Shown here: positions 18,120 through 64,000 of the stretch, one piece after another
Numbering within the stretch: the stretch's first letter is position 1
Layout: each line of letters starts with the position of its first letter
From: Candidatus Bathyarchaeota archaeon
GTDB taxonomy: Archaea > Thermoproteota > Bathyarchaeia > Bathyarchaeales > Bathycorpusculaceae
Direction: 5' to 3'
Assembly: GCA_963733095.1 (NCBI GenBank)
Contig: CAVTBV010000009.1
Span: 160,001-224,000 of the forward strand
Length of the DNA: 64,000 nt
Program-made: the position numbers and the translations under genes
The notes under the pieces: generated by a model
What the model saw: the letters and a program-made list of their open reading frames with translations, nothing else
What the model was told of the DNA's origin: nothing
Databases searched by the model: none

Positions 18120-19490
18120 TTGAGCGATTTGACTCAAGCTAATGAAAAATGGGTTCTATCCTTTGAAAGTGGTCGCAATTGGCTACCTCACTTGCCTAGT
18201 TCAAGTACTAAAGAGCCGTTCATTCGACACCTAAAGAAATACTCTCTATGGGCTAAAATGAATCCTGATGAATTGATAAATTTCAAGATTGAAGGTTTAA
18301 AAGCAGTAGCAACAGAAAAGGAATTCCAAGCCGAAAGAATGCTAGAGAAGTATCTTAGACAAACTGGAATGACGCAATCAGTTGCAGCATACGCCAAAAA
18401 CGCCATTATTAGCTTCTATAAGCACAATTGGAGAGAACTTAATTCAGAAGTCGCTAGAGATATTGAGCCACCAGAAGCAAAAAAGAGAACGCCTAAGCTA
18501 GAAGAAATTCAAGAGCTAGAAAGCAACTGTACAACCGCTAGAGATAGGGCTTTAATTTGGTTTTTCCCGTCTACTGGTTTTAGGATAGGAACGCTAACCA
18601 AGCTATTTAGAAATGACCTTAAACCTACTGGTGACGCTGAAGTACCTTATTATCTGGAAATAGAAGCTAAGAGACTAAAAGGCTCTGGAATTGGTAAGTA
18701 CAAAGGGCTTAAACAAATCACCTTTGTTAACAGCTTTGTTTGGGCTAAGATGCAAGATTACTTCGCTGAAGCTAAAAGAAGAGGTTTTAATCTAACTGAG
18801 GATTCACCGCTATTTATCGGATACAAAGGTCGATTTACTAAAGAAGAAAGAAAGCTATCCGTTAAACCCAAAAAAGTTAGAGCAATGACTGAAGGAGCAA
18901 TCAATAACACTTATGACAATGCATCACTAGCCGCTTGGAAAGACTTAGAGGTAAAACGCTTTTCTCCCCATGACAACAGAGATGTTTTACAGAGTGCTTT
19001 AGAGAATGTCGTTAACGATAACATGATAGCTCCTATGTTAGCCCATAAACCAAAAAACGCTGTTGACTTCCACTATTCAAGCCACTTATGGCAAGAGCTA
19101 TTACCAAAATACAAATTGGCATTACCAAAACTAATCCCACAAACCACAGCAGAACTTAAAATAGAAATAAACCAACAGAAAGCAACTAACCAAAAACAGC
19201 AATCCGAAATAGAAGCCATAAAAGAAGAAATGAATGCAAGATTTGAAAAACTAGCTTCTCTTTTGAAAAGTGATGCAAAAGTATTACCGCCTGAAAATCA
19301 AGATGAAATATTTAGATTAAAGACAAATGGATTACTATCGGAAAGTGAAATAGCACAAAAGCTTAAACTTAAACTTAAGGCAACGGAAGACCATTATATT
19401 GATGAAAACGGAAAAGAATTAGACCCTAAAACTTTAACGGAAGAGCAAAAGAAGAAATTTAAATCTGTAACGGAGTATTGGGAACTTTAA
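18120..19490 (+). CDS. Tyrosine recombinase/integrase
   Basis: RDRAL..STGFRIG (Arg), SPHDNR (HxxR), MLAH, FHYS (Tyr): full catalytic set; coiled-coil C-terminal extension. Confidence 0.92.
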   Translation: MSDLTQANEKWVLSFESGRNWLPHLPSSSTKEPFIRHLKKYSLWAKMNPDELINFKIEGLKAVATEKEFQAERMLEKYLRQTGMTQSVAAYAKNAIISFYKHNWRELNSEVARDIEPPEAKKRTPKLEEIQELESNCTTARDRALIWFFPSTGFRIGTLTKLFRNDLKPTGDAEVPYYLEIEAKRLKGSGIGKYKGLKQITFVNSFVWAKMQDYFAEAKRRGFNLTEDSPLFIGYKGRFTKEERKLSVKPKKVRAMTEGAINNTYDNASLAAWKDLEVKRFSPHDNRDVLQSALENVVNDNMIAPMLAHKPKNAVDFHYSSHLWQELLPKYKLALPKLIPQTTAELKIEINQQKATNQKQQSEIEAIKEEMNARFEKLASLLKSDAKVLPPENQDEIFRLKTNGLLSESEIAQKLKLKLKATEDHYIDENGKELDPKTLTEEQKKKFKSVTEYWEL

Positions 19491-19569
19491 TTTACGCTCT
19501 TTTCCCACATCTTTTTTATTCTCTTTTTACCCTAAGATTCTAAATTATAGCCAACTATCAAAGATTGAT

Positions 19570-19605
19570 ACTAAGATAGTATGTGATTCTAAACTAAGAT
19601 AGTAT
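19570..19605 (+). repeat. 13-bp perfect direct repeat (actaagatagtat x2)
   Basis: 19570-19582 and 19593-19605. Confidence 0.8.
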
Positions 19606-19619
19606 AGATAATATAATAT

Positions 19620-20313
19620 AGGTAGTAAAGTTAGTGTAATAAGTACACCCATAGCATAGTTAACGACTAAATTTTCTGTTGATTCTATTGGACCTAGCCT
19701 ACATTTTCGCTTTAGTTTGTCGGATAGTGGCTTTAGTCACTATCAATAATCTTGTCTTATCATGGACTCAATAAGGGATATTGTTAATTATCTAGAGTAA
19801 ATTGTGCGGATACATCGCTAGTGATTTTTATCCGACACAATATTTTAGGAATAAAGCAGAGAGTTAACTAACAGACTACAGCGAACAGTTTAATCTTGGA
19901 TAATGTCGGCTCTGGTTGTGTCGGTCTTCAAATAAGAAGATAAAGAGCCGAAAGTGTCGGTCATATGGGAAGACTGCTATCTCTGGGCTATAAGAGTTTG
20001 TCGTATAGATAACTGAGATAACTTATGCTTTAGCCCATATTCCCGACAGAACGGCACTATCTTATCGCCTATTCCTTATTATAATATCTATACCGACACA
20101 GAGAACACCAGAATATAGATAAGATTATAAATTAACTAAGATAACCTACACTTATAGACAGATAACCGACAAACTAACTCCGCTACCCGATTGAATCCGA
20201 CACCAAATCCGACAGCCAGCATCCATAGTTAAGCTACCCCTGAAAGAAAATCATTGTCCTCACGATGGCTATTCTGAAGCCTGAATATTAGGTTTATTTT
20301 TCATGGTTTCTTT
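19620..20313 (+). ncRNA. Putative large structured ncRNA (or folded ssDNA element)
   Basis: ORF-free; more than 15 nested helices found by eye; G-U wobbles mostly on the + strand; ends approximate. Confidence 0.65.
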
Positions 20314-20315
20314 GT

Positions 20316-20699
20316 TTAGTGAAGATTTTTTATTTCCTTATAACAAGTATCTAATTTTCTTAAGAGTTTAACAACTCCATAATACGCAATCAATGAAGTT
20401 ATTGCAGCTACGAAAAATAAAAAAGTATTTATGGTGAAAGCTGGAGGTTGGTTTATGAATAATTGTATTGCAAATACTGTAAAAGTGACTCCACCAGCAA
20501 AAAACCCAAAAATTCCAGCTAAGTAGATTTGAAGGTCTGAATTGAGTTGGGCTAACCTGATTTGTAAGGCTCTATCTTCAATTATAGCATTTCTATTTTG
20601 AATAGCAAAGGCTTTTTCAATCTTTTCTTTAATGGCTAAATATTTGTCTAGCGCTTTATTGAATTGGTCTAAGCCTTTATCAACATCACTATCAGGCAT
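20316..20699 (-). CDS. Hypothetical 2-TM protein
   Basis: 127 aa ORF, coiled-coil plus two hydrophobic helices. Confidence 0.7.
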   Translation of the reverse strand: MPDSDVDKGLDQFNKALDKYLAIKEKIEKAFAIQNRNAIIEDRALQIRLAQLNSDLQIYLAGIFGFFAGGVTFTVFAIQLFINQPPAFTINTFLFFVAAITSLIAYYGVVKLLRKLDTCYKEIKNLH

Positions 20700-20755
20700 T
20701 TTTATCTGGTTGTTCGTATGGCGTTAACTGCTTAAAAGTTTTATCTTTAGTTTTG

Positions 20756-20938
20756 TTATCGGTGTCTATCATAGTCGTTTTTAGATAACACATAACCAGC
20801 TAGAGAAATTAAGAGAAAACCGACAACGCTCATGATAATTTGACCGATTAAACTTAAAGCCAAAACGTTAACTAAACCAAAAAGCAAAACAACTACTCCT
20901 AAAGCAAGAACAAATTTGAAAGCGTCTACTAATCCCAT
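20756..20938 (-). CDS. Small 2-TM protein
   Basis: 60 aa; SD-like GAGGT upstream. Confidence 0.7.
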   Translation of the reverse strand: MGLVDAFKFVLALGVVVLLFGLVNVLALSLIGQIIMSVVGFLLISLAGYVLSKNDYDRHR

Positions 20939-20950
20939 ATTATTTACCTC

Positions 20951-21277
20951 TTAGAAGTCAAACGGTGAACGCTTTTTCTTTTTTCTGCTCGGTGGCTCAC
21001 CTAAGAAGGCATTTTCATTAACTTGAGGAACTTCCCACATCTTGTTAAGCCTCTTATTGTACGCTATTCGGTCACGTTCATCTTGCCGTCTTTCTCTTTC
21101 TTCATTCTGCACAAAAGCTTGACCTCTGGCATATCCTCTTCCAGCATGATAATGTTCTCTTTCAATTTGAGCGTAATATTGCCTATCTTGCTCTTGTATT
21201 CGTTTTCTTGCTTCATTCTCACGGTAGGCTCTTTGAATACCTCTTCCGAGCAATTTACCAAATATCCATAGACCCAT
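20951..21277 (-). CDS. Charged hypothetical protein
   Basis: 108 aa, R/E/Q-rich, tandem with the next gene. Confidence 0.7.
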   Translation of the reverse strand: MGLWIFGKLLGRGIQRAYRENEARKRIQEQDRQYYAQIEREHYHAGRGYARGQAFVQNEERERRQDERDRIAYNKRLNKMWEVPQVNENAFLGEPPSRKKKKRSPFDF

Positions 21278-21469
21278 TCCAAAATAGTAAAAAGTTTTAC
21301 CAAATCCTATAAGAATTCTCTTGCCGATATTCTTTGAATTTGCCGTTTTAGATTCCAGCTTGTAAGTGTTTGTTTGAAAGTCTATTTATAATCTGTGGTA
21401 AACTCTTTCACTCGCTTTTTTGCATCGCTTGTTTTGCCTTAGTTCTTGTTTGTGTTTTGCTTGTGAAAA

Positions 21470-22117
21470 CTAACTAGGTGTTAAACCTAGAAAATTTGCC
21501 AGAATGAAGGAAATAAAGATAGCAGTTATGAAAAGAGCGAAAGAAATATAGAAAATTCTAAGGTATATTTTTGTGCGCATTTTACCCGTAAATTGTTTCT
21601 GTCCTGAGAGTTTGCAAATATGTTTTTCAAGTGACCTTGTTATTATTGGTGAAATAAAAACTTGAGATACCATTAATCCCATAGCAAATGCGTTTTTAAC
21701 GCTCTGTAAAAGGATGGGATTTGTTGAATTAAGGATTACATTTAACGCTATGAATGGAGTTACCAAATAATATATCAAACAGCTAAAAAGCAAACCCCAC
21801 GAAAGAATACGATACTCCATTGAGTCAGTCAACATTCCCCTTAACCCTATAGAATACGAAGCTAAGAGTGAGAGAATAATTCCTATTATTGAGAGTGCAA
21901 AACTGCTTGAAAATCTGTTAAAGAAAAAGGCGTGTTGACTTACAAGGATTCCAAGAGAGAATGTTGCAATTGCCACTAGGATGTTGTATAAACTATCTAT
22001 CTTATTGAGAACATTATCTCTTTTTCGCTCTTTTTTCGAGTTCAGAGATTCTTCTAGAAGTATGTCGATTTTTTGCTCTAAGGATTTGCTTTCTTCTGTT
22101 ACCACATATTTTCGCAC
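21470..22117 (-). CDS. Multi-TM hypothetical protein
   Basis: 215 aa ORF with about 5 TM helices. Confidence 0.7.
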   Translation of the reverse strand: MRKYVVTEESKSLEQKIDILLEESLNSKKERKRDNVLNKIDSLYNILVAIATFSLGILVSQHAFFFNRFSSSFALSIIGIILSLLASYSIGLRGMLTDSMEYRILSWGLLFSCLIYYLVTPFIALNVILNSTNPILLQSVKNAFAMGLMVSQVFISPIITRSLEKHICKLSGQKQFTGKMRTKIYLRIFYISFALFITAIFISFILANFLGLTPS

Positions 22118-22194
22118 TCGATAGATTGTTTTAGGAAAGCTTTTAGTTTTTGCTCTTTTGCGCTTTTTGAATTTAATGACTTAGTTATTTAATA

Positions 22195-22926
22195 TTACTT
22201 GATGTTCTCTAACTCTAGTGTAAGCTGTTGAATTTCGTTATCAACCTCTTCATTCTCTTTAAGCTCTTTTGAATAGAGTTCTCGAGTTTTAATTTGAAAT
22301 TGTTCAAAGAAATTATCGACCAAAGATTGATATTGATTTAGTGCAAGCTTTAAATCAATCTCATTGTGATTTTCGATATATCTTACAAAACCTTCACGTT
22401 CAAGTATTGGGTAAAGTTCTTCTTTTCTTTCAAGCAAGCTTTCCTTTGTTAAGAGTATGCTCTGTCTAAATGGTTGACCAATTCCCATTCTAGAGAAGTG
22501 TGCTACCAAATCTAGTAATTCATAGTGTTGGGTTAAATGTCGCAAGCATCTGCTAAAATTATATGAATCATCGGACTGTAAAGAACCAATTTTTGTTTTA
22601 TAAAAATCACTTATTCTTTCGTACCTTTCACTTAACTTCTTCCCCTGAGCAATCAATGTATAGGTGCTAGCAAGGTAGTTATGAAGTAATCTGGAAAGTT
22701 CTGCAAAGAACAAAACTCTTTCTTTCATTATGTTTATCAAAAATGTTGTATTTGCTTCATAGCTATTAATTGCCGTAGACAACTCTTGATAGTTTTTGTT
22801 AACCGCATAATGAGTGTTTCTAAAGTTATTGAGCATCTGAGAAACTTTAGTGCCGTACAATGTTCCTTTCTTTTCGTCTAGTAACGCCAATTTTTCTAAA
22901 ATTTGCAGTCTTCTATTTTGGCTCAT
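22195..22926 (-). CDS. HEPN-like protein (possible RNase toxin/Abi)
   Basis: All-helical; RLLHNYLAS upstream and LRHLTQH (Rx4H) motif. Confidence 0.6.
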   Translation of the reverse strand: MSQNRRLQILEKLALLDEKKGTLYGTKVSQMLNNFRNTHYAVNKNYQELSTAINSYEANTTFLINIMKERVLFFAELSRLLHNYLASTYTLIAQGKKLSERYERISDFYKTKIGSLQSDDSYNFSRCLRHLTQHYELLDLVAHFSRMGIGQPFRQSILLTKESLLERKEELYPILEREGFVRYIENHNEIDLKLALNQYQSLVDNFFEQFQIKTRELYSKELKENEEVDNEIQQLTLELENIK

Positions 22927-23011
22927 TAGTATCTTTTGATAAGTGTACACTTTACTTTTAGTTCTTTGCCCTTTTGCCCTTATGTAAAAGTTAGGTACTC
23001 TCTGGAAAAAT

Positions 23012-23133
23012 AAGAAGCCCAAACTAAGCCCCGTTAGAAAAAAATATACTCACACAACCTAAAAAGACCTATAATGACTTATTTTTTAAATTGGTTTAAA
23101 ATTTATGCCCTAAAAAAAAATTGCGCTCTGATT
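23012..23133 (+). repeat. Degenerate long inverted repeat, left arm
   Basis: aagaagcccaaactaagcccc / agaccta / gctctgatt are collinear with the reverse complement of 26510-26608. Confidence 0.6.
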
Positions 23134-23216
23134 CTTCCTTCTTCTGTACGTTAATAGGGTGTCCACTAGTATATTATAATATAATATTATTTTATATTAT
23201 AACTACTAAACTATAA

Positions 23217-23882
23217 CTAACTACTACTAACTAACCCTCTATTCCCATATCTCTGATTATTGATTGGCTCACTATCGTTCGCTTCTGTGTCACATATGGG
23301 TATAGAGTGATAATTATCTAAGGAAGGATTGATATCCTGTGAGTGTATAATTTTTTCTTGGGCTATCTTTTTATTTTCTTCTATTTGCTTAAGTTGGTTA
23401 ATAATAAAGTCATTTTTAATTTTACATAAACGGTTGAATTCTTCATTTATGAGGTTTGAATCTAGAAAATAGCGTGTATTGTTATCTGGTAGTATGTTGT
23501 CATTGACCGTTATGTGTGAGTCTGGGTTTTGTCTAAGATATTTACCCGCTAGCAATGCATCGGTGAAGTCATAAAAAACCAATCGGTCAACTTTAGTTTT
23601 GGCTATGTTAAATTGTCGGTAATAATCCAGAATTGCTTCTTTTATTTTAAGTTTTAAATCGTGCCTATTTATAACGCCTTTTTTAGCTACCAAGTTTGGA
23701 TGTTGTTCTAACTGTCTAGCTCTAACCGTCTTTTGCCAATCGGTCAGGTTATTTTCAGTTTCTTCTTGTTCGTCAATATAGTTTTTCAGAACTAAAAGTA
23801 CATGACTGAATTTCCATTGCTCAGAACTTAGACCCGTTAACTCTTCTCTACTCTTCATACTTTTTCCCTTCACTTTTGACAT
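23217..23882 (-). CDS. Hypothetical protein
   Basis: 221 aa ORF divergent from the + strand operon; no recognisable motif. Confidence 0.7.
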   Translation of the reverse strand: MSKVKGKSMKSREELTGLSSEQWKFSHVLLVLKNYIDEQEETENNLTDWQKTVRARQLEQHPNLVAKKGVINRHDLKLKIKEAILDYYRQFNIAKTKVDRLVFYDFTDALLAGKYLRQNPDSHITVNDNILPDNNTRYFLDSNLINEEFNRLCKIKNDFIINQLKQIEENKKIAQEKIIHSQDINPSLDNYHSIPICDTEANDSEPINNQRYGNRGLVSSS

Positions 23883-23988
23883 TAGAAATAGCCTTAAGCT
23901 ATACTCTATCGTAAGTATTAAATGTTACGATACTATTTAAATATTTTTCCTTTAAAAAATAAATGTTGTTACATGTCCTAAAAAAGAC

Positions 23989-24250
23989 ATATGTTAATAG
24001 AAGGGAAGGTTCGTGTTAGTCGAACCTGAAGAGTTAATTAACATATATGTGCTTCCACCCTTATAAGCTTTATGGCGTAATAAGACACCATATATGGCGA
24101 AAGTTAACGTTAAAAGAGCAAACCCGTGTTAGTCGGGAATGCCAAAGTTGAAGGATTTTTTAGGTTAAAAAAAGAGTGTCTATGGTGGTGAAATGGATGA
24201 AATGTATAAGCTACCTATGCCGACACCCAAACATAGGATAATAGCTTATA
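23989..24250. other. Hairpin-rich non-coding locus (candidate origin or small RNA)
   Basis: Two stems with the identical loop TGTTAGT; a third stem has CCGACACCCAAA as its loop. Confidence 0.65.
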
Positions 24251-24437
24251 AGTGAAGTTCACGAATTTAAATATTTTTATTGCTAGCAACAATCAATTAT
24301 TTTGTAGTTAGGAATATGGTTATATTATACATATTAACCGCAAAATCACTAAAAAGAGTTATTGGAAATAAAAAGACATAAATAGCTATATGAAGCTATA
24401 CGACTCTATAGCAAATATTAATATGGGAGATATGTAA

Positions 24438-24716
24438 ATGGCAAAACATGTTCAAAAACAATATTCAATAAACACTAGTTTAGATATTAATGAAAACCTA
24501 AGAATCCTGCGTTATAAGACTAATATGAACAATGCAGCTATTCTAAGCCAAATCATAACGCCACTAGCAGAGAAATTAGGCAACCAAGAAAAACCATGCG
24601 GTTTTATAGTTTATACCGTTAATGACCAAATAATCATTCAAACATATGGTTTTGGCAGTATTGTTTGTTCTGGTAAAGCCACCGCAACATTAAGCGATAT
24701 TTTAGGAGTTGCTTAA
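24438..24716 (+). CDS. Hypothetical protein (RHH-like N-terminus)
   Basis: Strand-helix-helix-like pattern; SD GGGAG; first gene of an operon. Confidence 0.65.
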   Translation: MAKHVQKQYSINTSLDINENLRILRYKTNMNNAAILSQIITPLAEKLGNQEKPCGFIVYTVNDQIIIQTYGFGSIVCSGKATATLSDILGVA

Positions 24717-24718
24717 CC

Positions 24719-24925
24719 GTGACTAAACAAAATCCTCAAACATTGAAAGAATCTACTGACCTTATCATTCAAGGGATTCAAGCCAAACAACTAAGAGAAA
24801 AAACATTAAACGGTGAAATTATCCAAACCTATGATGTTAAAGGTGAACTTGATTCAATCCCAAGAAATTTTGCTAGAAAGCTAGACAAACCTTGCGATGA
24901 GCTATCTAAAGAGAAGGAAGTCTAG
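24719..24925 (+). CDS. Hypothetical protein
   Basis: 68 aa, SD AGGAG, tightly packed. Confidence 0.65.
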   Translation: MTKQNPQTLKESTDLIIQGIQAKQLREKTLNGEIIQTYDVKGELDSIPRNFARKLDKPCDELSKEKEV

Positions 24926-24927
24926 CC

Positions 24928-25506
24928 ATGACTGAAGACGAAAAAGAAAATACCTATTCCGTTCCATTGCCAAAAGACAGTAAAACAATTAAGATGACCA
25001 TTGACGCAACAGCTAGAGAACAGCGTTTACTAGAAGACCTAAACAAAGCTAACCAAACTATAGGCGCACTCATGGGGCAACATAAAAAAGAATTCATCGA
25101 AGGAGAACAACGACCAGCCCCGAACGGTGACCAAGAGGATACTTCAACTATTGACCGTGAAGATAGAGCTAGAAACGGAAACGATACAAGAATACAATCT
25201 GCTGGGAGCTACGTAGATGTAGATTGGGTTAAAGGTTCAACGGTTCCAGAGGTCATTGAGAAGATTGAGTACTTAAGTAAGGTTGCAGATAACAAAGAAG
25301 TTTTTAAGAAAATCCATAATTCTCTGGTAAAAAAGGTGCTTCATGGGAAGCCAATTTCTATACAGTTTGAAGGTAGCCTAAAACAATTAGCCACTACAAG
25401 AGAAAAACAAATTCCAGAATTTTGTGATGACTCAACACGAAAACAGCTTCAATCTTGGAACACTAAAGTTAGAGCCAATAGGGTAAATTGGTCGGAGATA
25501 GAATAA
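24928..25506 (+). CDS. Hypothetical protein
   Basis: 192 aa, operonic. Confidence 0.75.
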   Translation: MTEDEKENTYSVPLPKDSKTIKMTIDATAREQRLLEDLNKANQTIGALMGQHKKEFIEGEQRPAPNGDQEDTSTIDREDRARNGNDTRIQSAGSYVDVDWVKGSTVPEVIEKIEYLSKVADNKEVFKKIHNSLVKKVLHGKPISIQFEGSLKQLATTREKQIPEFCDDSTRKQLQSWNTKVRANRVNWSEIE

Positions 25507-26003
25507 TGTCACTAGAAAAGAAACATGTTCCAAAAAGTGGATTTTGGAAACAAGAACATGACGGAAAAATGTATTGGGTCGAAAGTGACAAATTTGGAAA
25601 CCTAATAAAACTTTATGACCCCTTAGAAATTGAAGGCATAAGTCGTAGTGCAAATTACACTATAGTTTTTTTACGTGAATACACAGATACAAATTCTTTC
25701 AACGGCAAAATAAAAAAATGGTTTGCACAAGACATAAAGATGCATATAGGAGAAAATGTTGATTCATCGATAGTGATAAGGTTCGATTCTTATTCACGTA
25801 AATTCTTTATATCTGATTTAAAACCCGTTGGTCAAACTTTTTTAGCTCCACTTGAAAGCACACCTGAGTTAATTGTTACAAAAAGCGAACCTTACCCCGT
25901 AGACCAAATACAAGCGAAAGAAATCTTAGCTAAATATTCCTATGGATTCGGCAAGGTCGAAGTTGACGCTCAGGGAAATATCGAATATTATCAGACCTGT
26001 TGA
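25506..26003 (+). CDS. Hypothetical protein
   Basis: TAATG overlap with the previous gene (start MSLEKK). Confidence 0.75.
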   Translation: MSLEKKHVPKSGFWKQEHDGKMYWVESDKFGNLIKLYDPLEIEGISRSANYTIVFLREYTDTNSFNGKIKKWFAQDIKMHIGENVDSSIVIRFDSYSRKFFISDLKPVGQTFLAPLESTPELIVTKSEPYPVDQIQAKEILAKYSYGFGKVEVDAQGNIEYYQTC

Positions 26004-26007
26004 TTCT

Positions 26008-26202
26008 ATGACCCGTTGCGACTATTGCCACCAAGTTATTTTTCACAAAAATAATGAACGATTTTGTAACAGAGACCATAGTCACGCATATGTTCGCAAA
26101 CTGAGCGAAGTTTCAAGACGCTACATGTATAATTCACCTGAGCAACTTGAAGCCATAAAATTATATAAAAAACTAGGGAAGGATTACAAAAATGGTTTAT
26201 GA
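26008..26202 (+). CDS. Small zinc-finger protein
   Basis: MTRCDYCH...FCNRDH. Confidence 0.65.
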   Translation: MTRCDYCHQVIFHKNNERFCNRDHSHAYVRKLSEVSRRYMYNSPEQLEAIKLYKKLGKDYKNGL

Positions 26203-26323
26203 AAATTATAATGAATGTTCATGTGGCTTCGATAAAGCTGAGACCCGTATAGTTAATGGTCAAGTCTGGATAGTTTGCAGTAATCCCTTATGTCAAAAAG
26301 TACGTTATCGTTCATGGTTCTAA
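26192..26323 (+). CDS. Small Cys-rich protein (43 aa)
   Basis: Manual translation MVYENYNECSCGFDKAETRIVNGQVWIVCSNPLCQKVRYRSWF. Confidence 0.55.
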   Translation: MVYENYNECSCGFDKAETRIVNGQVWIVCSNPLCQKVRYRSWF

Positions 26324-26509
26324 ACCACTCTCCCCCTAGTTGGAGATTATATACTAATCAAATAATCTCAAAAAAATATGGGCTATTCTAAGGCTGTTTT
26401 TCTTTCTCTCACATAATCGCCTTATTTCCTCACTATAGCTTTTAGGCTAGCTTTTCTTTTTTGGCTTATGCATATCGATTATTATGCTATATCGACCATA
26501 ATAAAATAA

Positions 26510-26608
26510 AATCAGAGCTAACCCTAAAAATAATTTTTCAAAATATTTTTTGTTTTAGGTCTCTCTATGTGTAAAAAGTTGAAAAAAGGGGCTTAAAATG
26601 GGCTTCTT
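26510..26608 (-). repeat. Degenerate long inverted repeat, right arm
   Basis: ggggcttaaaatgggcttctt (26588-26608) is an 18/21 reverse complement of 23012-23032. Confidence 0.6.
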
Positions 26609-26821
26609 TTCCATTTTTTTCAAAATTTTCCCTATTTTAGACCCTATTTAAACCAAAAGTTTGTTAAGTTTGCTTCTCAAATCGCTTAAAATACAACTTT
26701 TGGTCCATGCTCACCCAGAGTATTAAAATATTTTCAAAAAGGAGCGTGAAAAAAGACGAAAAATGATAAAACGAAAAAATCTAAGACGGAACCTCAAAAA
26801 GAAGCGTTAAATTACAATTCG

Positions 26822-28111
26822 TTGATAAAAAAAATTGCTGAGAATGGTGACCTTTGCGTTCTCGGCATGAAAGGCACATGTAAAACCACTCTGCTTATGC
26901 ACTTAGCTAGAAACATAATGGAAGACCTAGACAACCACTTGATTATATTTGAGACCTTCCCGAAATGGCAAAAGGAATTCGATATTATACCCTACATGAT
27001 AATAAGCGATAGTGACGTTCAAGAAAAAGAAAATTCGCCATATATGCAAGAAAATTATTCTTATATTCAATGGTCTAAAAACTATGAGATAGCTAACGAA
27101 AGCGAAGTTTTAGAATTTCTAAAGACTAATAGAAATTGCTTATTCCTTATCGAAGCTGAAGACATGGAACGAATAAGCGCCTTTATGGAATTCGTGATTT
27201 ATACATGCTACAGAAAACAATACTTGAGAGCTAAAGCTGAAAACTTAGAGACTGTTAACGCTAATTATTGGTTCTTATGCGAAGAGGCACATAACCTTTT
27301 AGACAGTACAGTACTATCTAAAAAAACCTTTAACAAACTCCGAAAAATGCAGAGCGAATTCAGAAACTTAAAGATGCATCTTATAGTTGTGACTTTACGG
27401 TTACAATCACTTAGCCCAAAAATTAGAAGTACCATGTCTCTTTTGTGTTCCCGTGTAAGTTTGGATGACTACATGCTTAAGCTGAGAGCGTTATTAAGAA
27501 ATAGCGAATACAGAGACCTTATCACAACATTACCCAAAGGCGAATTTGTTTTTCCAGAGACAGACCAAAAATTAACAACTAAGCCATTTAATCAAGCTGG
27601 AAAGCCATATGAATGGAAACCAGAACCAGAGCCAACTATAGAAGAGACCACAGAAGAGCCTAGCTCAGAACCAGAACAGCCTAAAACCATTATGGGATTT
27701 ATAAAGAATCTATTCCACAAAAGCAAACCTGAGATTATAACCCAAAAAGAATACGATAGACTAAACAACTTAGACGATAAAGAATCAGAACCAGAGATAA
27801 AGATAGTTAGGGAAAAAGTTATAGCTATCACAATTAAGAAACCCAGAGCCACAAAACCAAAAACTACAGAGCCGATTAAAGAACCTGAAAAATCAAATAT
27901 GGAAAAGCTAAGAGATGTTTATTCCTCAGATAGCCAAGCATCTAAAGATTATGAAGCTTGGAAGAAAAAAGCTTTAGCCGAAAAGAAGCAAACAGAAACT
28001 AAAGAAGCAGAAACCGAAAGCAAAGAGAGGGAAGACAACATAAATGAAGATTCAAAAGGCGATTTTTTAGCCCTAAATGATGATGATTTAATGTTTAGTG
28101 AAGAGGAATAA
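26822..28111 (+). CDS. FtsK/HerA-superfamily-like P-loop ATPase with low-complexity tail
   Basis: Walker A GMKGTCKT, Walker B WFLCEEAH, FRN..hhhhT.R...L...IR; E/K/P-rich C-terminus. Confidence 0.8.
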   Translation: MIKKIAENGDLCVLGMKGTCKTTLLMHLARNIMEDLDNHLIIFETFPKWQKEFDIIPYMIISDSDVQEKENSPYMQENYSYIQWSKNYEIANESEVLEFLKTNRNCLFLIEAEDMERISAFMEFVIYTCYRKQYLRAKAENLETVNANYWFLCEEAHNLLDSTVLSKKTFNKLRKMQSEFRNLKMHLIVVTLRLQSLSPKIRSTMSLLCSRVSLDDYMLKLRALLRNSEYRDLITTLPKGEFVFPETDQKLTTKPFNQAGKPYEWKPEPEPTIEETTEEPSSEPEQPKTIMGFIKNLFHKSKPEIITQKEYDRLNNLDDKESEPEIKIVREKVIAITIKKPRATKPKTTEPIKEPEKSNMEKLRDVYSSDSQASKDYEAWKKKALAEKKQTETKEAETESKEREDNINEDSKGDFLALNDDDLMFSEEE

Positions 28112-56135: not shown

Positions 56136-57797
56136 TTATTTCCAAGCCTTTTCTATATATTCACTTAACATTCTTTTAGTGTTATAATAAGAAGCCAGCG
56201 AAATAGAATTTTTTTGCATTTCTACCCATTTTTCGTGGTTACTGTAAAATGTGGGCATTACCTTTTGTTCTAATACGTTGTATAAGCCGAGAGCATTTTG
56301 AAAATCTGTTTCATGTTGGTAACCAAAAGCCCAGCCTATTTTGCCTTCTTTTGTTTTGAATTCTTCATCTATCCATCCGTCCCAAGAACTAACATTTATA
56401 ACTCCGTTTGGAAGGGCTTTCATTCCGCTAGTTCCTGAGGCTTCATTGGGCGGTCGTGGAGTATTCAATAGAACATCAACACCCGCGATCAACGTGGGGC
56501 TGATTTCCATCCCGTAGTTTTCAATAAAAATGGTTGGGATCGCTCCATTAATTATTCGGCTCTCTTCATGAATCTTTGTTATTGCCTCTTTGCCATAGCC
56601 ATCTCTCGGATGGGCTTTTCCAGCCATTAGAATTTGGATTTTTCCCGATCCAATAAGTTTAAGCCTTTCTCTCTCGGTGAAAATCAATGTTGGTCTTTTA
56701 TATTCAGCTATTCTTCTAAACCAACCTAGAGTCAGTTTGTTCCTATCCAAATCTATTCCATATTCATCTTCAATGAAGTCCAATAAAATTATCTTGTTTT
56801 CTAAGTGAGCTTTCCATACTTCGTCATTGGGTAATCTCAGGGCATCTTTTAATTTTTCTGGGTTCTCTTCCCAACCAGGAAAATGCCTATCAAATAACCC
56901 TTTAAAACTACCACTGGTCCATGTCCCAAGATGTACAGCATTGGTAATATAATCTATATTTTTATTAGGAAACATATCTCGGGCTGCTTCAGCATTTTTT
57001 TTAGAAACACCGTTCTGATAATCGCTTAAACTCATGGCAAGTTTTGTCATGTTTAAACAGTTTGCCTGTTCACCGTATTCTTTAATTTTGTCTAATGGAA
57101 AAGAATCTTTTAGAATGCGCTCAACCAATCTCATAGGAAATATTTCGTGTCCCGCGGGAACTAAAGTATGAGTTGTGAAGCTAAATTTTTTCTTTGTTTT
57201 ATCCTCATCCCAATTGTATTTATTTGCAAGTTCTAATGTTGCAAGCGCCGTATGACCTTCGTTCATGTGGTACTTTCGTATATTGTACCCTAGCTTTTCT
57301 AAAAATCTAACTCCACCGATTCCAAGGACTACTTCTTGTTTGAATCTATGGCTTTGGTGTTCGTCGTATGTAGTGGATTTGCCCTTCCAATAGCAATTCT
57401 CACTGATTTCTTTATCTTCTGTAGCATTCTCACTTAATCTAGTGTCAAGAAAATATATCAAGACTTTATTGTTATGTCCATTTTTAATGACATACTCTTC
57501 TGCACCAATTGTAACGTCTCTATCTTCAATTTTTACCTTGACCTTTTCATCCCTTTTTCTCAACACACCGAAGGGATTTGACCTTTTTAGCACTTCTTTT
57601 TGCTGGTAATTTTCAATTTTTTGTTCAAAATACCCTTTATGATGTCTTAATGACACACCCACTAACGGAAAATTTAGTTCAGCTGCACCTTTTATTGTAT
57701 CTCCCGCTAAAACACCAAGCCCTCCACAACAGGTGGGAAGGCGAGCGTTTACGCCGATTTCCATTGAAAGATAAGCGACACTATCCGTATATGACAT
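56136..57797 (-). CDS. glgP: Alpha-glucan phosphorylase (short form)
   Basis: SME, GGLGVLAGD, HMNEGH, FTTHT, YKR, AGKAHP, EASGTSGMK. Confidence 0.93.
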   Translation of the reverse strand: MSYTDSVAYLSMEIGVNARLPTCCGGLGVLAGDTIKGAAELNFPLVGVSLRHHKGYFEQKIENYQQKEVLKRSNPFGVLRKRDEKVKVKIEDRDVTIGAEEYVIKNGHNNKVLIYFLDTRLSENATEDKEISENCYWKGKSTTYDEHQSHRFKQEVVLGIGGVRFLEKLGYNIRKYHMNEGHTALATLELANKYNWDEDKTKKKFSFTTHTLVPAGHEIFPMRLVERILKDSFPLDKIKEYGEQANCLNMTKLAMSLSDYQNGVSKKNAEAARDMFPNKNIDYITNAVHLGTWTSGSFKGLFDRHFPGWEENPEKLKDALRLPNDEVWKAHLENKIILLDFIEDEYGIDLDRNKLTLGWFRRIAEYKRPTLIFTERERLKLIGSGKIQILMAGKAHPRDGYGKEAITKIHEESRIINGAIPTIFIENYGMEISPTLIAGVDVLLNTPRPPNEASGTSGMKALPNGVINVSSWDGWIDEEFKTKEGKIGWAFGYQHETDFQNALGLYNVLEQKVMPTFYSNHEKWVEMQKNSISLASYYNTKRMLSEYIEKAWK

Positions 57798-58075
57798 AGA
57801 TAGGGATGTAATTACTACAAAAATAATAAAGCTTTACACGCAAAAGCATAATCCTGTTATTTTTTGTGAACCTGAAGTTTATTCTTAGATTATAACCTCA
57901 ACAGTAAGTTTACAATACATTACTTTCTGTAACCATTACTCACCAGTTTCTTCTTTATGTGACTTGACGTAAGGTCGTTGGCGGGATTAGTAACAGAATG
58001 CTGTAACAAGTTAAGGAATTTAGTCACCACAAAAAGGGCGCAGATAAAACCCCTTCAATGAATTAGGAGCAGATT

Positions 58076-58091
58076 TGGAGCCTTCGGCGGG
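58076..58091 (-). other. tRNA 3'-end remnant (att-like)
   Basis: Reverse complement cccgccgaaggctcca = T-stem 3' side + acceptor strand + T + CCA. Confidence 0.55.
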
Positions 58092-58877
58092 TATTCTAGC
58101 TACAGAAACACAGTCTTATGCTGTGTTAAGAAGTACCATTACTTGCTTAAGGCAGATAGCAATCTTAGAGAATTAGAGCTACGCAGCAATGATGTTAAGA
58201 GTAGTATTGCTAAGTCTCTGTTGTTATTCTCAAAGTTTAACGGTTGCTACTCACAGTTTAAGGCAAGGCTATCTGAGTATGGGATAAATCTGTACAGACC
58301 TGACAGTCTGAATGCTTTTCTAAGAATACTTGGCGCCACCAACTCAAACATCTTAGAGTATTATAATGAAGTTACTCCATTGCTTAGAGATAATGAGCAG
58401 TTATTTGCAAAGTTTCTCTTGCAAAGTGGCTTGAGGGTTAGTGAGGGAATTGAGAGCTTTAACCTGATAATTCAGCTAGCACGTAACAATAAGCTATTAG
58501 ACTATTATGATGAGAACTTAAGCTGTTTAATGCACTTCAAATATCCAACGCTCTTCATCAGACACACTAAGAATGCATTTATCACCTTCATCAGCAAAGA
58601 TTTCTTGGAGCAAATAGCAGAGAGCCAGCCAGTTACTTACTTTAGCATTAGAAAGAGGTTAGAGAGAAACAAGAAGCCTTTGAGGCTCAATGAGTTTAGA
58701 GACTACTTTGGAACAACCTTAGTCAATAATGGAATCTTAGACCGAACAGAACTTAGTCTGCGGAAGAATACCAATTAGCATATTTTCAGCAGACACTATT
58801 GGAGCCCTAAGCTCAAAGAATTGGGAGAAAGAATCTTTGCTGCTACTTCTAAAATAGGCGTAACAGTAACTTGCTAA
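58092..58877 (+). pseudogene. Tyrosine integrase pseudogene
   Basis: SGLRVSE, RHTKNAF, FRDYF in frame; EQNLVCGRIP and RHYWSP lie in shifted frames; no proper start. Confidence 0.85.
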
Positions 58878-58985: not shown

Positions 58986-59015
58986 TTGAGACGTCAGACC
59001 TGATTTTAGATAGAA
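58986..59015 (+). repeat. ~30-bp direct repeat, copy 1
   Basis: ttgagacgtcagacctgattttagatagaa. Confidence 0.75.
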
Positions 59016-60364: not shown

Positions 60365-60511
60365 ATGATGCTTGTGGACACTTTATTGGGTGGATTCAAA
60401 CACTGCCCAAAATGCCACATTTACCTCTGTGGTCTATGCTCATATCAACTGATGAGTATACAAAGTAAATTTCCAATAGAGTGCCTAATGTGCAGAGGAA
60501 TACTAAGTTAA
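60365..60511 (+). CDS. Small Cys-rich (RING-like) protein or fragment
   Basis: Manual translation ...HCPKCHIYLCGLCS...ECLMCRG. Confidence 0.5.
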   Translation: MMLVDTLLGGFKHCPKCHIYLCGLCSYQLMSIQSKFPIECLMCRGILS

Positions 60512-60611: not shown

Positions 60612-60640
60612 TTGAGACGTAAGACCTGCTTTAGATAGAA
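60612..60640 (+). repeat. ~30-bp direct repeat, copy 2
   Basis: ttgagacgtaagacctgctttagatagaa. Confidence 0.75.
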
Positions 60641-61765: not shown

Positions 61766-61803
61766 AGAGTTTTCTTTACGCTCCAAAATTAGTTCTTAAT
61801 GGT
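61766..61803 (+). repeat. ~38-bp direct repeat, copy 1
   Basis: agagttttctttacgctccaaaattagttcttaatggt. Confidence 0.75.
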
Positions 61804-62167: not shown

Positions 62168-62204
62168 AGAGTATTCATACGCTCCAAATTTGTTCTTTAA
62201 TGGT
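62168..62204 (+). repeat. ~38-bp direct repeat, copy 2
   Basis: agagtattcatacgctccaaatttgttctttaatggt. Confidence 0.75.
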
Positions 62205-62418
62205 CACTAAATAGCTCCTCTTGCACTCTGCCCCGCTCCTGTCTCGAGATAGGCACGGATTAGTCGGAACCTGCCCGAACACAATGTATCAAGGCAACGG
62301 TCATATGAATTCTGGATGCATAAGGCTTATGAAAAGTGTATCCTTAGGCTGATTGGGCGGGTTCAGAGGGAACTGCTGGCTCACGCACTTCCACAAACTC
62401 TCAACCTCCCCCTTCTTT

Positions 62419-62552
62419 AAGGCCTTCCGAAATCTAGGGGACATAGTAGAAAAGGCTTATCTGAATTTAGCTTATCATCAGAACATAAAAAAAAATAAAT
62501 AATATTATTTTGATTTCTCTTTCTCTATACGGGTCAATTTGTTAAAGGCCTT
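62419..62552 (+). repeat. AAGGCCT-bounded ~132-bp element, copy 1
   Basis: aaggcctt...catagtagaa...cttatcatcagaacat...aaaaataaa...aaggcctt. Confidence 0.85.
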
Positions 62553-62554
62553 GG

Positions 62555-62687
62555 TTAAGCTTTCCTTTTCGCTTTGCCTACTTCTTCCTGGACCTTGCCT
62601 TCTACTTCTTCAACTTTGCCTTTAATCTGTTCAGTTTTGTCGCCAGTAATTTTACCTAAGCCTTCGCGGACTTTGCCCTTGAAGCCT
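62555..62687 (-). pseudogene. CsbD-family fragment lacking a start
   Basis: KGKVREGLGKITGDKTEQIKGKVEEVEGKVQEEVGKAK; an in-frame stop is met upstream before any start codon. Confidence 0.75.
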
Positions 62688-62767
62688 ACCCTGATCGTCG
62701 CCTGCTTCGGACTGAGAAATTAGCCCTTAGTTAAAAAAAACTAAACTGTAACTTGAGCCTTTTTGCT

Positions 62768-62998
62768 CTACATGCACTGAAGAGGCGTGCTTGCGGAGAT
62801 TTTCGGTTTATGTCCTTGATTTAGGAGTTCTAGTGCCTCATCGTTTGTTATTCCGAAGGGAAGAATATCTTTGTGAAAATTTTCAACATGTGACCGTACA
62901 ATGGATATGGCTTCACATATGCTGCCTAAGATTTCAAAACTATAACCGCAGGGACATTGACCTTTTAGCTTCCTTCTCAAATCGCTCTCCTCAATCAA
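62768..62998 (-). CDS. Small metal-binding protein (CxC...HxxxxH)
   Basis: QCPCGY...HVENFH. Confidence 0.6.
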   Translation of the reverse strand: MIEESDLRRKLKGQCPCGYSFEILGSICEAISIVRSHVENFHKDILPFGITNDEALELLNQGHKPKISASTPLQCM

Positions 62999-63097
62999 CT
63001 CAAAGATGTATTTAAAATAAAAAATGAGATATTAACTTCTGTGACTGCACAAGCGCAATCACAACATTATCATTTAGAAAGTTAGTCCAAGCCAACC

Positions 63098-63229
63098 AAG
63101 GCCTTCCAAAATCTGGGCCCCATAGTAGAAGAGGCTTTTCAGGTTTTATCTTATCATCACAACATATAAAAAATAAATATAGAATATCGATCTGGCTCTA
63201 TCTATCCCCCTCAATTTGGTGAAGGCCTT
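63098..63229 (+). repeat. AAGGCCT-bounded ~132-bp element, copy 2
   Basis: Same ends and internal blocks as copy 1. Confidence 0.85.
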
Positions 63230-63480
63230 CATTTACATGAAAAATCAGGCGCGTCTGAGCATGCAGGGCTACCTTAGCGCCCCTCTAAAATAGAAACAGC
63301 CGGCGGGCAGCAGCACGCGTTCGAGATCCGCCTCAAGAAGAAGTTTGAATGGTTCCACAGCACCGAATTCAAGAGCCTCTGGCGGCAGCAGATTCAGTAC
63401 CAAGAAGTAGCATATCCGGTCAGTCACCTTCGCCCGGGCGAGGCATTGATTGAGCGCTTTGACACGTGGGACATCGACGA

Positions 63481-63611
63481 AAGGCCTGCAGCAAACCAGG
63501 GGGCATAAGGTAAGTGCATTCTATTTTTCTTTATTTTTTTTAATGTTCTGATGATTAGCTGTTTTGCCCCAAACCTCTCTTCTACTATACCCCCAGAAAA
63601 TTGCAGGCCTT
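63481..63611 (-). repeat. AAGGCCT-bounded ~132-bp element, copy 3 (inverted)
   Basis: atgttctgatgat and ttctactat are reverse complements of the core blocks; ends aaggcctgca/tgcaggcctt. Confidence 0.82.
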
Positions 63612-64000
63612 GTGAGTATCCCGCTACCGCACGATAGAAGAAATGCGCTTGCTGGAAAATGCCGAATTAATTGCACCAGAATTTGCACGAACGGTTGCTC
63701 CGATTTTCATAGGAAATAACCGAACTCGACCGATTCCGATGCCGCAGTTACGCCGTTCCTACGGGCTTTCGTTTTGATCGCCCGTATCTGAAATAGTAAC
63801 CAATGAGCATGAGGCCAATTGTAACAGCGATTACTATAATTGCCGTATCAGTAGTCGTGTTGTTTCCCCTCTATCCATGCGTTGTTTAACATCTAATAGC
63901 CCTACCTGCACGTTTAAAGTATGCAATGTCACGCTTATATGGCACGCTGTTCTTAGAGCGCAACAAATTGAAGGCCTTTAGCTATCGCAAGAAAACCTGT

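Follow-up and report, generated by a model that had tools for sequence, protein, structure and literature searches.

An apparently undescribed ~133-bp site that bounds polar gene-module arrays in Bathyarchaeia

The last 1.6 kb of the stretch of DNA analysed here (64,000 nucleotides from a Candidatus Bathyarchaeota archaeon, hereafter the window) contain three copies of a ~133-bp element, which is a real and lineage-wide boundary site of polar gene-module arrays in Bathyarchaeia and is apparently undescribed. Three copies of 134, 132 and 131 bp, in the orientations +, + and -, had been proposed in an earlier note made from the letters of the window, and their positions, their strands, the three blocks named there and the ends assigned to them are all confirmed. 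With their cores, and with a lone octamer further on, they are as follows.

62419..62552, + strand: site copy 1 (left arm, core and right arm), 134 bp, found by nhmmer profile
62465..62492, + strand: 28-bp core of copy 1, read as 11-6-11 with spacer CATCAG, a candidate crossover region
63098..63229, + strand: site copy 2, 132 bp, found by nhmmer profile
63144..63171, + strand: 28-bp core of copy 2, spacer CATCAC
63481..63611, - strand: site copy 3, inverted, 131 bp, found by nhmmer profile
63537..63564, - strand: 28-bp core of copy 3
63971..63978, - strand: lone terminal octamer without a core, a weak left-arm stub or scar

The pairwise identity of the three copies is 63-77%, and in leave-one-out nhmmer searches each held-out copy was recovered at E 1e-11 to 1.5e-19, with no further match below E 0.7 in the 64-kb window and no copy in its first 62.4 kb. 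The motif AGGCCT shows the same confinement, being absent from positions 1-62400 and present seven times after 62400. Since GGCC is avoided in this genome (observed/expected 0.17 in the window), the nine occurrences in the last 1.6 kb, where 0.8 would be expected, are not a matter of chance. The seventh AGGCCT, at 63972, had been suggested to begin a further copy; with the body of a copy placed to its right it scores no better than background (30% and 21% of null windows are as high), and in the opposite direction it amounts at best to a weak left-arm stub that faces back towards the array, a score reached by 2% of null windows.

A single scan of GTDB species representatives returned 30 loci, of which 13 are from Bathyarchaeia (nine genomes, judged by accession prefix) and hold 30 near-full copies beyond the three of the window; the other 17 are bacterial and the rest of the element is absent from them, with nothing below E 0.2. 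An iterated profile gave 43 matches at E<0.01, 33 of them near full length, and all of these lie in the 13 loci (given L-numbers below) and the window. The scan pattern itself is matched by only 16 of the 41 copies examined, namely the 13 anchors and the window's three, so the scan misses most copies and the true range must be wider. The carriers come from soil and peat and are all MAGs. Neither at the gathering score nor in a permissive scan was there an Rfam match to the site, blastn against a plasmid collection found no match, and against a phage collection it found one of 26 bp at E 9e-3, which is no real match. That the family is new, as the earlier note had supposed, would seem to hold, as a full-text search of the literature outside subscription journals, at the level of titles and abstract openings, returned no description of the element.

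Full copies are 119-137 bp long, 29 of the 31 being 127-134 bp, and any two copies are 44-89% identical (median 64%), so that there are no young, near-identical copies (maximum 0.89). Conserved blocks are found in the terminal octamers, in a TATAG/CTAT pair ~17 bp inside each end, in an octamer-like motif at columns 36-42 and in the central 28 bp; the left arm carries a terminal AAGGYCTT, TATAG and a second AAGGYCTT-like motif, and the right arm carries CTAT and a terminal AAGRCCTT. The best-conserved long block is not at the ends: it is the central 28 bp (columns 49-76), where the information content of 1.3-1.6 bits equals that of the ends, compared with 0.5-0.9 in the linkers. The spacer of this core is CATCAG or CATCAC (CATCAS) in 27 of 30 copies, and, read as an 11-6-11 dyad, the core is uneven, with the outer five positions 57-87% complementary and four of the six inner positions at most 27%.

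The earlier note had further read the ends as covarying, with a concerted change in copy 3, and this could not be upheld. In the alignment of 31 copies the covariation score of the 20 terminal pairs is 0.130, as against 0.134 after shuffling, and 317 of 500 shuffles score as high. In its ends copy 3 differs by a single substitution, a G at position 8, the partner C of which is a common variant (terminal pair 8 is unpaired in 14 of the 31 copies), and its longer repeat is the result of one substitution meeting that variant. A hairpin was rejected along with the covariation, neither rising above shuffles: three copies folded as DNA on both strands give z of -0.09 to -1.45, and the consensus fold of -4.3 kcal/mol has a double change in one of seven pairs and no covariation. 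Two further readings of the element were tried and discarded. The palindrome is not a target site duplication (TSD), the hexamer being the same at both ends in 11 of the 31 copies and its variants being mirror images, and the 10.5-bp periodicity of histone positioning is not seen, the strongest G+C period being 8.5 bp on the left with none on the right. A bacterial-type promoter scan, which is of little relevance to an archaeal host, found six promoters where 3.6 were expected.

Whether copies are clustered or dispersed in relatives had been raised as a check on the element, and nhmmer shows them to be clustered, polar and module-bounded, with chimeric arms. Eleven of the 13 loci hold 2-6 sites each at E<0.01, the gaps between sites being 0.25-4.2 kb except for one of 16 bp. 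Neighbouring sites are co-oriented in 27 of 29 pairs (binomial p 1.6e-6, the pairs not being independent), the exceptions being L019 and window copies 2 and 3. The clusters lie mostly inside decayed integrative islands; L010 occupies the window's own tRNA-Thr island position, with syntenic flanking genes, and there the two halves of a split integrase and three sites all lie between the copies of a 50-bp att repeat.

With the sites masked, homology between loci often starts or stops 1-13 bp from the end of a site, and the modules so delimited recur at different loci; they include Alba, DUF5752, DUF4177, flavodoxin and pieces of integrase. The DUF5752 module is found in three contexts (L011, L013 and L014), as is the Alba module (L011, L021 and L029), the DUF4177 module is in L025 and L029 with part of it in L010, and an AbrB-like flank is shared by L010, L014, L024 and L025. 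From the window, the stretch before copy 1 recurs in L014, L016 and L020, and the ORF that separates copy 1 from copy 2 recurs in L010, L016 and L028. Many modules are single host-type genes of 0.4-0.6 kb flanked by arms on both sides; there is also shared cargo that has no arm at one of its ends, the position of the junction between cargo and outer end varies, and arm stubs of 17-45 bp are common. In three cargo genes the terminal AA of the site forms part of the stop codon. The orientation of cargo is mixed, and by a hand count the nearest gene past the right end points to the site in about 23 of 34 cases. The first ten flanking bases are more alike than distal ones, with 17 of 615 pairs matching at 7/10 or better compared with 1-8.

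Around the copies in the window the following features can be recognised.

58072..58870, + strand: tRNA-Thr att remnant, then the frameshifted C-terminal half of an SSV-type tyrosine integrase (PF16795)
62304..62418, no strand: module end adjoining the left arm of copy 1, probably non-coding; a homologous stretch adjoins the left arm in L014, L016 and L020 (74-78% identity)
62555..62680, - strand: 3' fragment of a CsbD/YjbJ-like gene, 90% to L028, where the site is absent; NF007748 at E 1e-5, under the family cutoff
62674..63097, - strand: module with a small Cys/His ORF (62768-62998); homologous stretches in L010 (88%), L028 and L016
63281..63508, + strand: C-terminal fragment of a primase-helicase-type replication protein, filling spacer 2 at 54% GC, its last codons entering the right end of copy 3

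The labels AbrB-like and, beyond the weak NF007748 match, CsbD-like are presumptive. The cluster sits in a low-GC stretch that starts at the tRNA-Thr att remnant and integrase half, the gene content of the window is archaeal, 18 of 22 bases of the att remnant are those of the L010 att, and the integrase half is 42% identical to the integrase that adjoins a site in L010 and L024. The CsbD/YjbJ-like fragment is joined to the next module at a 9-bp look-alike of the right end, and the Cys/His-ORF module has homologues next to a right arm (in L010) and next to a left arm (in L016). A 12-bp inverted repeat had been described as bounding the segment between copies 1 and 2; it is literally present, but eight of its 12 bp belong to the ends of the elements themselves, and the CCAACC before the left end occurs in four of 36 copies, two of which are outside this module. 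The right end of copy 3 overlaps the final codons of the primase-helicase fragment. An insertion of copy 3 that split a gene was considered and rejected, as the primase-helicase homology does not continue past copy 3.

The arms of the sites have been shuffled against each other, as is seen in the fit of a model with one break inside the element and in the linkage of blocks within the right arm when the two halves are only weakly linked. Copies with a common downstream module share an excess of right-arm identity (0.205, null 0.007, p=0.0003, three groups), with an excess of 0.017 in the core. Those with a common upstream module have a left-arm excess of 0.066-0.088 (p=0.06, six hand-picked groups), which is confined to columns 1-23 (9 of 13 pairs at 0.16 or more) and absent in two groups, and they also show a right-arm excess of 0.057 (p=0.05). 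The linkage groups were picked by eye, omitting L019/L028 (a same-genome duplicate with half sites) and L010:1984/L025:9931 (where the junction is not shared). The one-break model has an LLR of 37, compared with -34 for linkage of the whole element, with the break best placed after column 80; columns 31-85 are within 4 LLR units, so the crossover point is not pinned. The site at L013:10000 is a clear chimera: at the left end it resembles sites of the integrase module (+0.29, +0.25), and in the right arm those of the DUF5752 module (+0.24, +0.15). When blocks were compared across 30 copies (three degenerate copies dropped, double-centred), non-adjacent blocks of the right arm were linked at r=0.26 with decayed copies removed, outer-left and outer-right blocks were not linked (r=0.07, p=0.10) and between the left and right halves there was a weak correlation (r=0.13, p=0.01). 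Over short distances, correlations that cross the edges of blocks may stem from local flips of A/T or G/C tracts rather than from descent. Orphan pieces end near columns 23, 43 and 72 and not at one point. A single crossover in the core may underlie the shuffling.

Polarity, conserved spacing, a conserved centre and shuffled arms are most simply accounted for by a directional recombination site, and we regard the chances as about even that the element is a polar site-specific recombination site with arms, with circles of one site each integrating at resident sites and so building arrays. In this scheme the site would be composed of the left arm, the central 28-bp core and the right arm, and the mobile unit would be the stretch between two sites, that is a right arm, cargo and a left arm. 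A circle or plasmid with one site would recombine with a resident site, so that the incoming DNA ends up between two directly repeated sites; repeated integration would then produce co-oriented arrays inside tRNA-anchored and other integrative islands, and excision or resolution between other pairs of sites would yield reshuffled modules and chimeric sites. The recombinase or an accessory protein would bind at the arms, and later deletions would trim the cargo until genes adjoin the arms. The enzyme would most likely be a tyrosine recombinase acting in trans, either a host Xer-like enzyme or an island integrase, and the site may be active at the present day.

Weak left-arm linkage, the poor dyad of the core, orphan arms broken at several columns and the inverted copy 3 all stand against a recombination site. 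Furthermore, two junctions in the window coincide with sequences resembling the end, a hint that the ends may react as well. A more far-reaching proposal, which we hold to be possible if rather doubtful, is that Bathyarchaeia have a gene-cassette platform of their own, independent of integrons and of Xer/dif, where a dedicated recombinase would act on the ~133-bp arm-core-arm site, capture genes of the host and of mobile elements (Alba, CsbD, flavodoxin, histidine kinases, pieces of integrase and primase), store them in polar arrays and reorder them, capture proceeding by arm-end joining at look-alikes and shuffling by exchange in the core. Cassette-type shuffling in archaea has been reported as bacterial-type integrons, in a study whose main text does not mention 'Bathy' (bioRxiv 2022.02.06.479319). 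A native archaeal system with a different site, if true, would offer a mechanism for the turnover of accessory genes in an abundant lineage of sediment and peat, and would make the first formation of pdif-like modules open to study in a second case. Being short and clearly delimited, the site can serve as a marker when metagenomes are mined for cargo and as a direct substrate in the search for a new site-specific recombinase.

The earlier note had left the choice between a MITE and a recombination-site family, possibly a capture or shuffling array. The array and recombination-site branch fits the relatives; the MITE branch is weakened by the lack of a TSD, a centre as conserved as the ends, an orientation of 27:2 and the lack of any transposase domain in the ORFs scanned. 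A MITE would have AAGGYCTT terminal repeats and be moved whole by a transposase encoded elsewhere, inserting with fixed polarity in islands, where deletions alongside it and homologous recombination between co-oriented copies (or an IS26-type translocatable-unit mechanism) would give rise to chimeric copies and mobile modules; it is the main rival, and we think it unlikely. IS26-type translocatable units do leave directly repeated copies between segments of cargo, as in the arrays here. The element has the size (<500 bp), AT-richness and imperfect terminal inverted repeats (TIRs) by which MITEs are described (PMC10969869), and the complementarity of its 20 terminal pairs is 68%, compared with 29-52% when they are slid. 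The outer-end junctions of the DUF4177, CsbD and DUF5752 modules vary in position, the terminal AA lies within the stop codon of the three cargo genes mentioned above, and the likeness of proximal flanks (17 of 615 pairs) could be a target preference. Against this, the absence of a flanking target duplication, already remarked in the earlier note, is general: in 30 of 31 copies the flanks share no direct repeat longer than 2 bp, in the remaining copy the longest is 4 bp, and the ends have the same hexamer in just 11 of 31. A TSD can decay as an insertion ages. Centre and length are conserved as much as the ends, copies of recent origin are missing (maximum identity 0.89), there is no significant fold (z -0.1 to -1.5), and the first 62.4 kb of the window are free of copies. 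Of the 189 ORFs of at least 90 aa in the 13 loci, 186 were scanned and gave no DDE, serine or HUH transposase or resolvase family (the other three duplicate L020 genes); in the window a Pfam scan covered 18 ORFs outside the cluster. The sole empty-side junction that was aligned (DUF5752, L014) has no target motif.

It would seem quite improbable that the element acts in cis to maintain small integrative plasmids or viruses, for instance as a replication origin, a transfer or rolling-circle nick site or a partition site, with the arrays being the residue of tandem integration and decay and of homologous recombination between sites. Its AT-rich centre flanked by inverted repeats would suit such a role, and it does adjoin genes of mobile elements, namely the 3' end of an integrase, the AbrB-like/SWIM module (L014, L024 and L025) and the 3' end of the window's primase-helicase. 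Indeed one primase-helicase relative, P0123, weakly ends in an arm (9.1 bits, null 99th percentile 8.5), but three others with a similar peptide have no arm (scores of 3.6 or less). Many modules are moreover small host-type genes between two arms, no Rep or HUH domain lies near the arrays, and the match to the nick site of the origins of the pC194/pUB110 family (PMC5031790 for pC194) has a median of 10/15, a value that 21.5% of shuffles reach, so that a likeness to this rolling-circle origin was rejected.

A portable promoter or operator, or a small RNA gene, travelling with accessory genes is highly improbable. The core does contain a TATA-like run and genes past the right end tend to point to the site (the 23 of 34 above), but the lack of an Rfam match, the feeble consensus fold with a double change in one pair and the mixed orientation of cargo all speak against it, and it leaves the module-bounded homology unexplained. 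Finally, chimeric joins made at the repeat during assembly, which the earlier note had named as a possible refutation and which the origin of every carrier as a MAG might suggest, can be practically dismissed, as the architecture recurs in nine other genomes, some on contigs of 0.1-1.5 Mb, the copies at 44-89% identity would not collapse, and the island of L010 sits at the same tRNA-Thr position between syntenic genes.

The arrays work in a manner similar to pdif modules, to the accretion of CIMEs and to integron arrays, yet they depart from each in a defining feature. In the pdif or xrs modules of Acinetobacter plasmids, which are acted on by XerC/D, many copies of one site likewise bound small recurring accessory modules, the core is likewise 28 bp, with an 11-6-11 layout that is a candidate one here, and no dedicated recombinase lies beside the arrays (PMC6449649, PMC11705084). 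Most xrs cassettes described there are however flanked by inverted sites, whereas the sites here are nearly all in direct repeat, and the xrs tested there have no accessory sequences alongside, in contrast to the conserved arms of ~48 bp and ~58 bp found here; the host here is archaeal and the arrays are chromosomal. Xer spacers are flanked by ATAA and TTAT (PMC11705084), and this ATAA-spacer-TTAT signature is absent from the core.

Closer in architecture are the accretions of ICEs, IMEs and CIMEs with chimeric attI, where islands anchored at a tRNA hold decayed elements separated by co-oriented composite sites of two arms (PMC5704250); for integrated elements of archaea, arrays have also been noted (PMC6563490). 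Co-oriented chimeric two-arm sites are found here as well (27/29 pairs, right-arm p=0.0003, the chimera L013:10000, and left-arm p=0.06). An attI of that kind would have a core identical to the chromosomal attB used by its cognate integrase, for example the 3' end of a tRNA. Here the site has no relation to the tRNA att of the island integrase (in L010 that att is a 50-bp tRNA-Thr repeat of its own), several unrelated loci carry it, the integrases in its company belong to at least two families, and the modules often consist of one small gene.

With integron attC and CALIN arrays, including the archaeal ones (bioRxiv 2022.02.06.479319), the arrays share polarity, compact single-gene modules and a site of ~130 bp. 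Stop codons can overlap the end of the site in both. The differences are the mixed orientation of cargo, the exchange inside the site, the lack of a conserved hairpin and the lack of IntI near the arrays, the last of which would not by itself exclude a CALIN. The R'' and R' boxes at the ends of attC have the consensus RYYYAAC and GTTRRRY, and these occur in none of 33 copies on either strand. The dif sites of archaeal XerA in Thermococcales and Sulfolobales resemble the core, if this is read as 11-6-11, in their geometry and also in their A/T-rich outer ends, and those of Thermococcales have conserved flanking inverted repeats (PMC2958812); dif is a single-copy site at the terminus with near-perfect arms, in contrast to a multi-copy site with a poor inner dyad. 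A likeness to dif itself was rejected, the match to that of P. furiosus having a median of 16/28, which 6% of shuffles reach, and so not being clearly above shuffles. Prokaryotic MITEs share the short AT-rich repeat and imperfect TIRs, and differ in the respects set out above, that is the TSD, the young identical copies, the conserved centre and a cognate transposase, none of the last having been seen here.

No recombinase is common to all the arrays. Among 36 proteins from the loci the best score to the XerA model NF040815 is 85, where the cutoff is 220, and the best to the IntI model TIGR02249 is 71.7, where the cutoff is 265. Two other candidates were set aside. The SWIM gene beside the AbrB-like gene was considered as the start of a transposase, and a weak search gave two longer relatives among 48 candidates, of 162-165 aa and with no catalytic domain; the N-terminus of the adjoining integrase was considered as an arm-binding domain, and its Atlas matches are unnamed and at most 0.84, with a structural TM of at most 0.51.

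Genes or remnants of tyrosine integrases, of at least two families, are found by Pfam or tblastn in seven of the 13 loci (L010, L011, L013, L014, L021, L024 and L025). An adjoining integrase need not act on the site, since it has a tRNA-Thr att of its own, the 50-bp repeat of L010. In L010, L013 and L024 a subclade of SSV-type integrases ends inside the left arm; such integrases carry att inside their own gene (PMC7253208), and ending in the arm therefore does not show that they act on it. The more distant SSV-type integrases, including that of the window, do not end in an arm. Of the 120 SSV-type integrase relatives listed, 13 end in G-L-Q/R, which is the translation of the left arm, 11 of these 13 belonging to the 21 nearest relatives, and a further two run through the arm in different reading frames, which shows that the site is an inherited part of that lineage of SSV-type integrase elements.

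Genes carried as cargo between copies of the site, the polar repeat of about 133 bp that bounds gene modules in the window and at other Bathyarchaeia loci (L numbers, from the genome scan), include Alba, a chromatin protein, which lies between arms in three genomes.

Features of the site's surroundings and of the window
L011:9585-9869; L021:10137-10421; L029:4858-5142: Alba as cargo between arms
L019:9194-10166; L028:9237-10165: 740-bp module, two copies
window 62304-62418; L014:13530-13695; L016:3284-3453; L020:8699-8876: conserved stretch, 115-175 bp, before the left arm
L014:9738-9930; L024:2469-2651; L025:7649-7846; L010:1293-1472 and 2779-2907: conserved flank, right arm to AbrB-like gene
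L025:1068-4224; remnants in L013, L014 and L021: tyrosine recombinase family with N-terminal zinc ribbon
window 56136-57797: glycogen/starch phosphorylase-family gene of low GC, between conserved glycosyltransferase genes and the tRNA-Thr att remnant
within window 18120-28111: tyrosine recombinase-like gene, 456 aa
within window 18120-28111: P-loop ATPase-like gene

In cargo genes for DUF5752 and flavodoxin (L011:8470, L013:10135 and L021:8815), the stop codon is completed by the terminal AA of the site, an arrangement reminiscent of cassette compaction. The 740-bp module carries a left arm at each end, in inverted orientations, and its two copies are 97% identical and share one contig with 18 kb between them. 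Tetranucleotides strongly avoided in window 1-62400 are GGCC (0.17), GATC (0.29), CCGG (0.39) and CTAG (0.60), and despite this avoidance GGCC is present at the site's ends.

Sequence is also conserved outside the arms. The stretch of 115-175 bp abuts the left arm at its end in every case and is probably non-coding; it has no match in Rfam. Possible identities for it are an RNA, the relic of a gene or an origin. The flank separating the right arm from the AbrB-like gene contains two palindromes, and the divergent partner of that gene varies, being an integrase N-half, a zinc-ribbon integrase piece or a SWIM gene, the last followed by small zinc-ribbon ORFs. In L025 the zinc-ribbon tyrosine recombinase lies beside a gene resembling family B polymerases; in L013 the remnant of this recombinase adjoins tRNA-His.

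Another low-GC island of the window (18120-28111, GC 0.32-0.36) holds no copy of the site, for which the window was searched. At the position of the phosphorylase-family gene, L010, which occupies the same tRNA-Thr island position, has different genes. Within the window's site-bearing island, direct repeats of 27 bp (81%; 61777-61803 and 62178-62204) and 21 bp (90%; 58986-59006 and 60612-60632) lie at gene ends and have no relation to the site. Finally, a small Cys-rich ORF of this island (60395-60500) is 75% identical to L013:9593-9698, a counterpart that precedes the integrase remnant.
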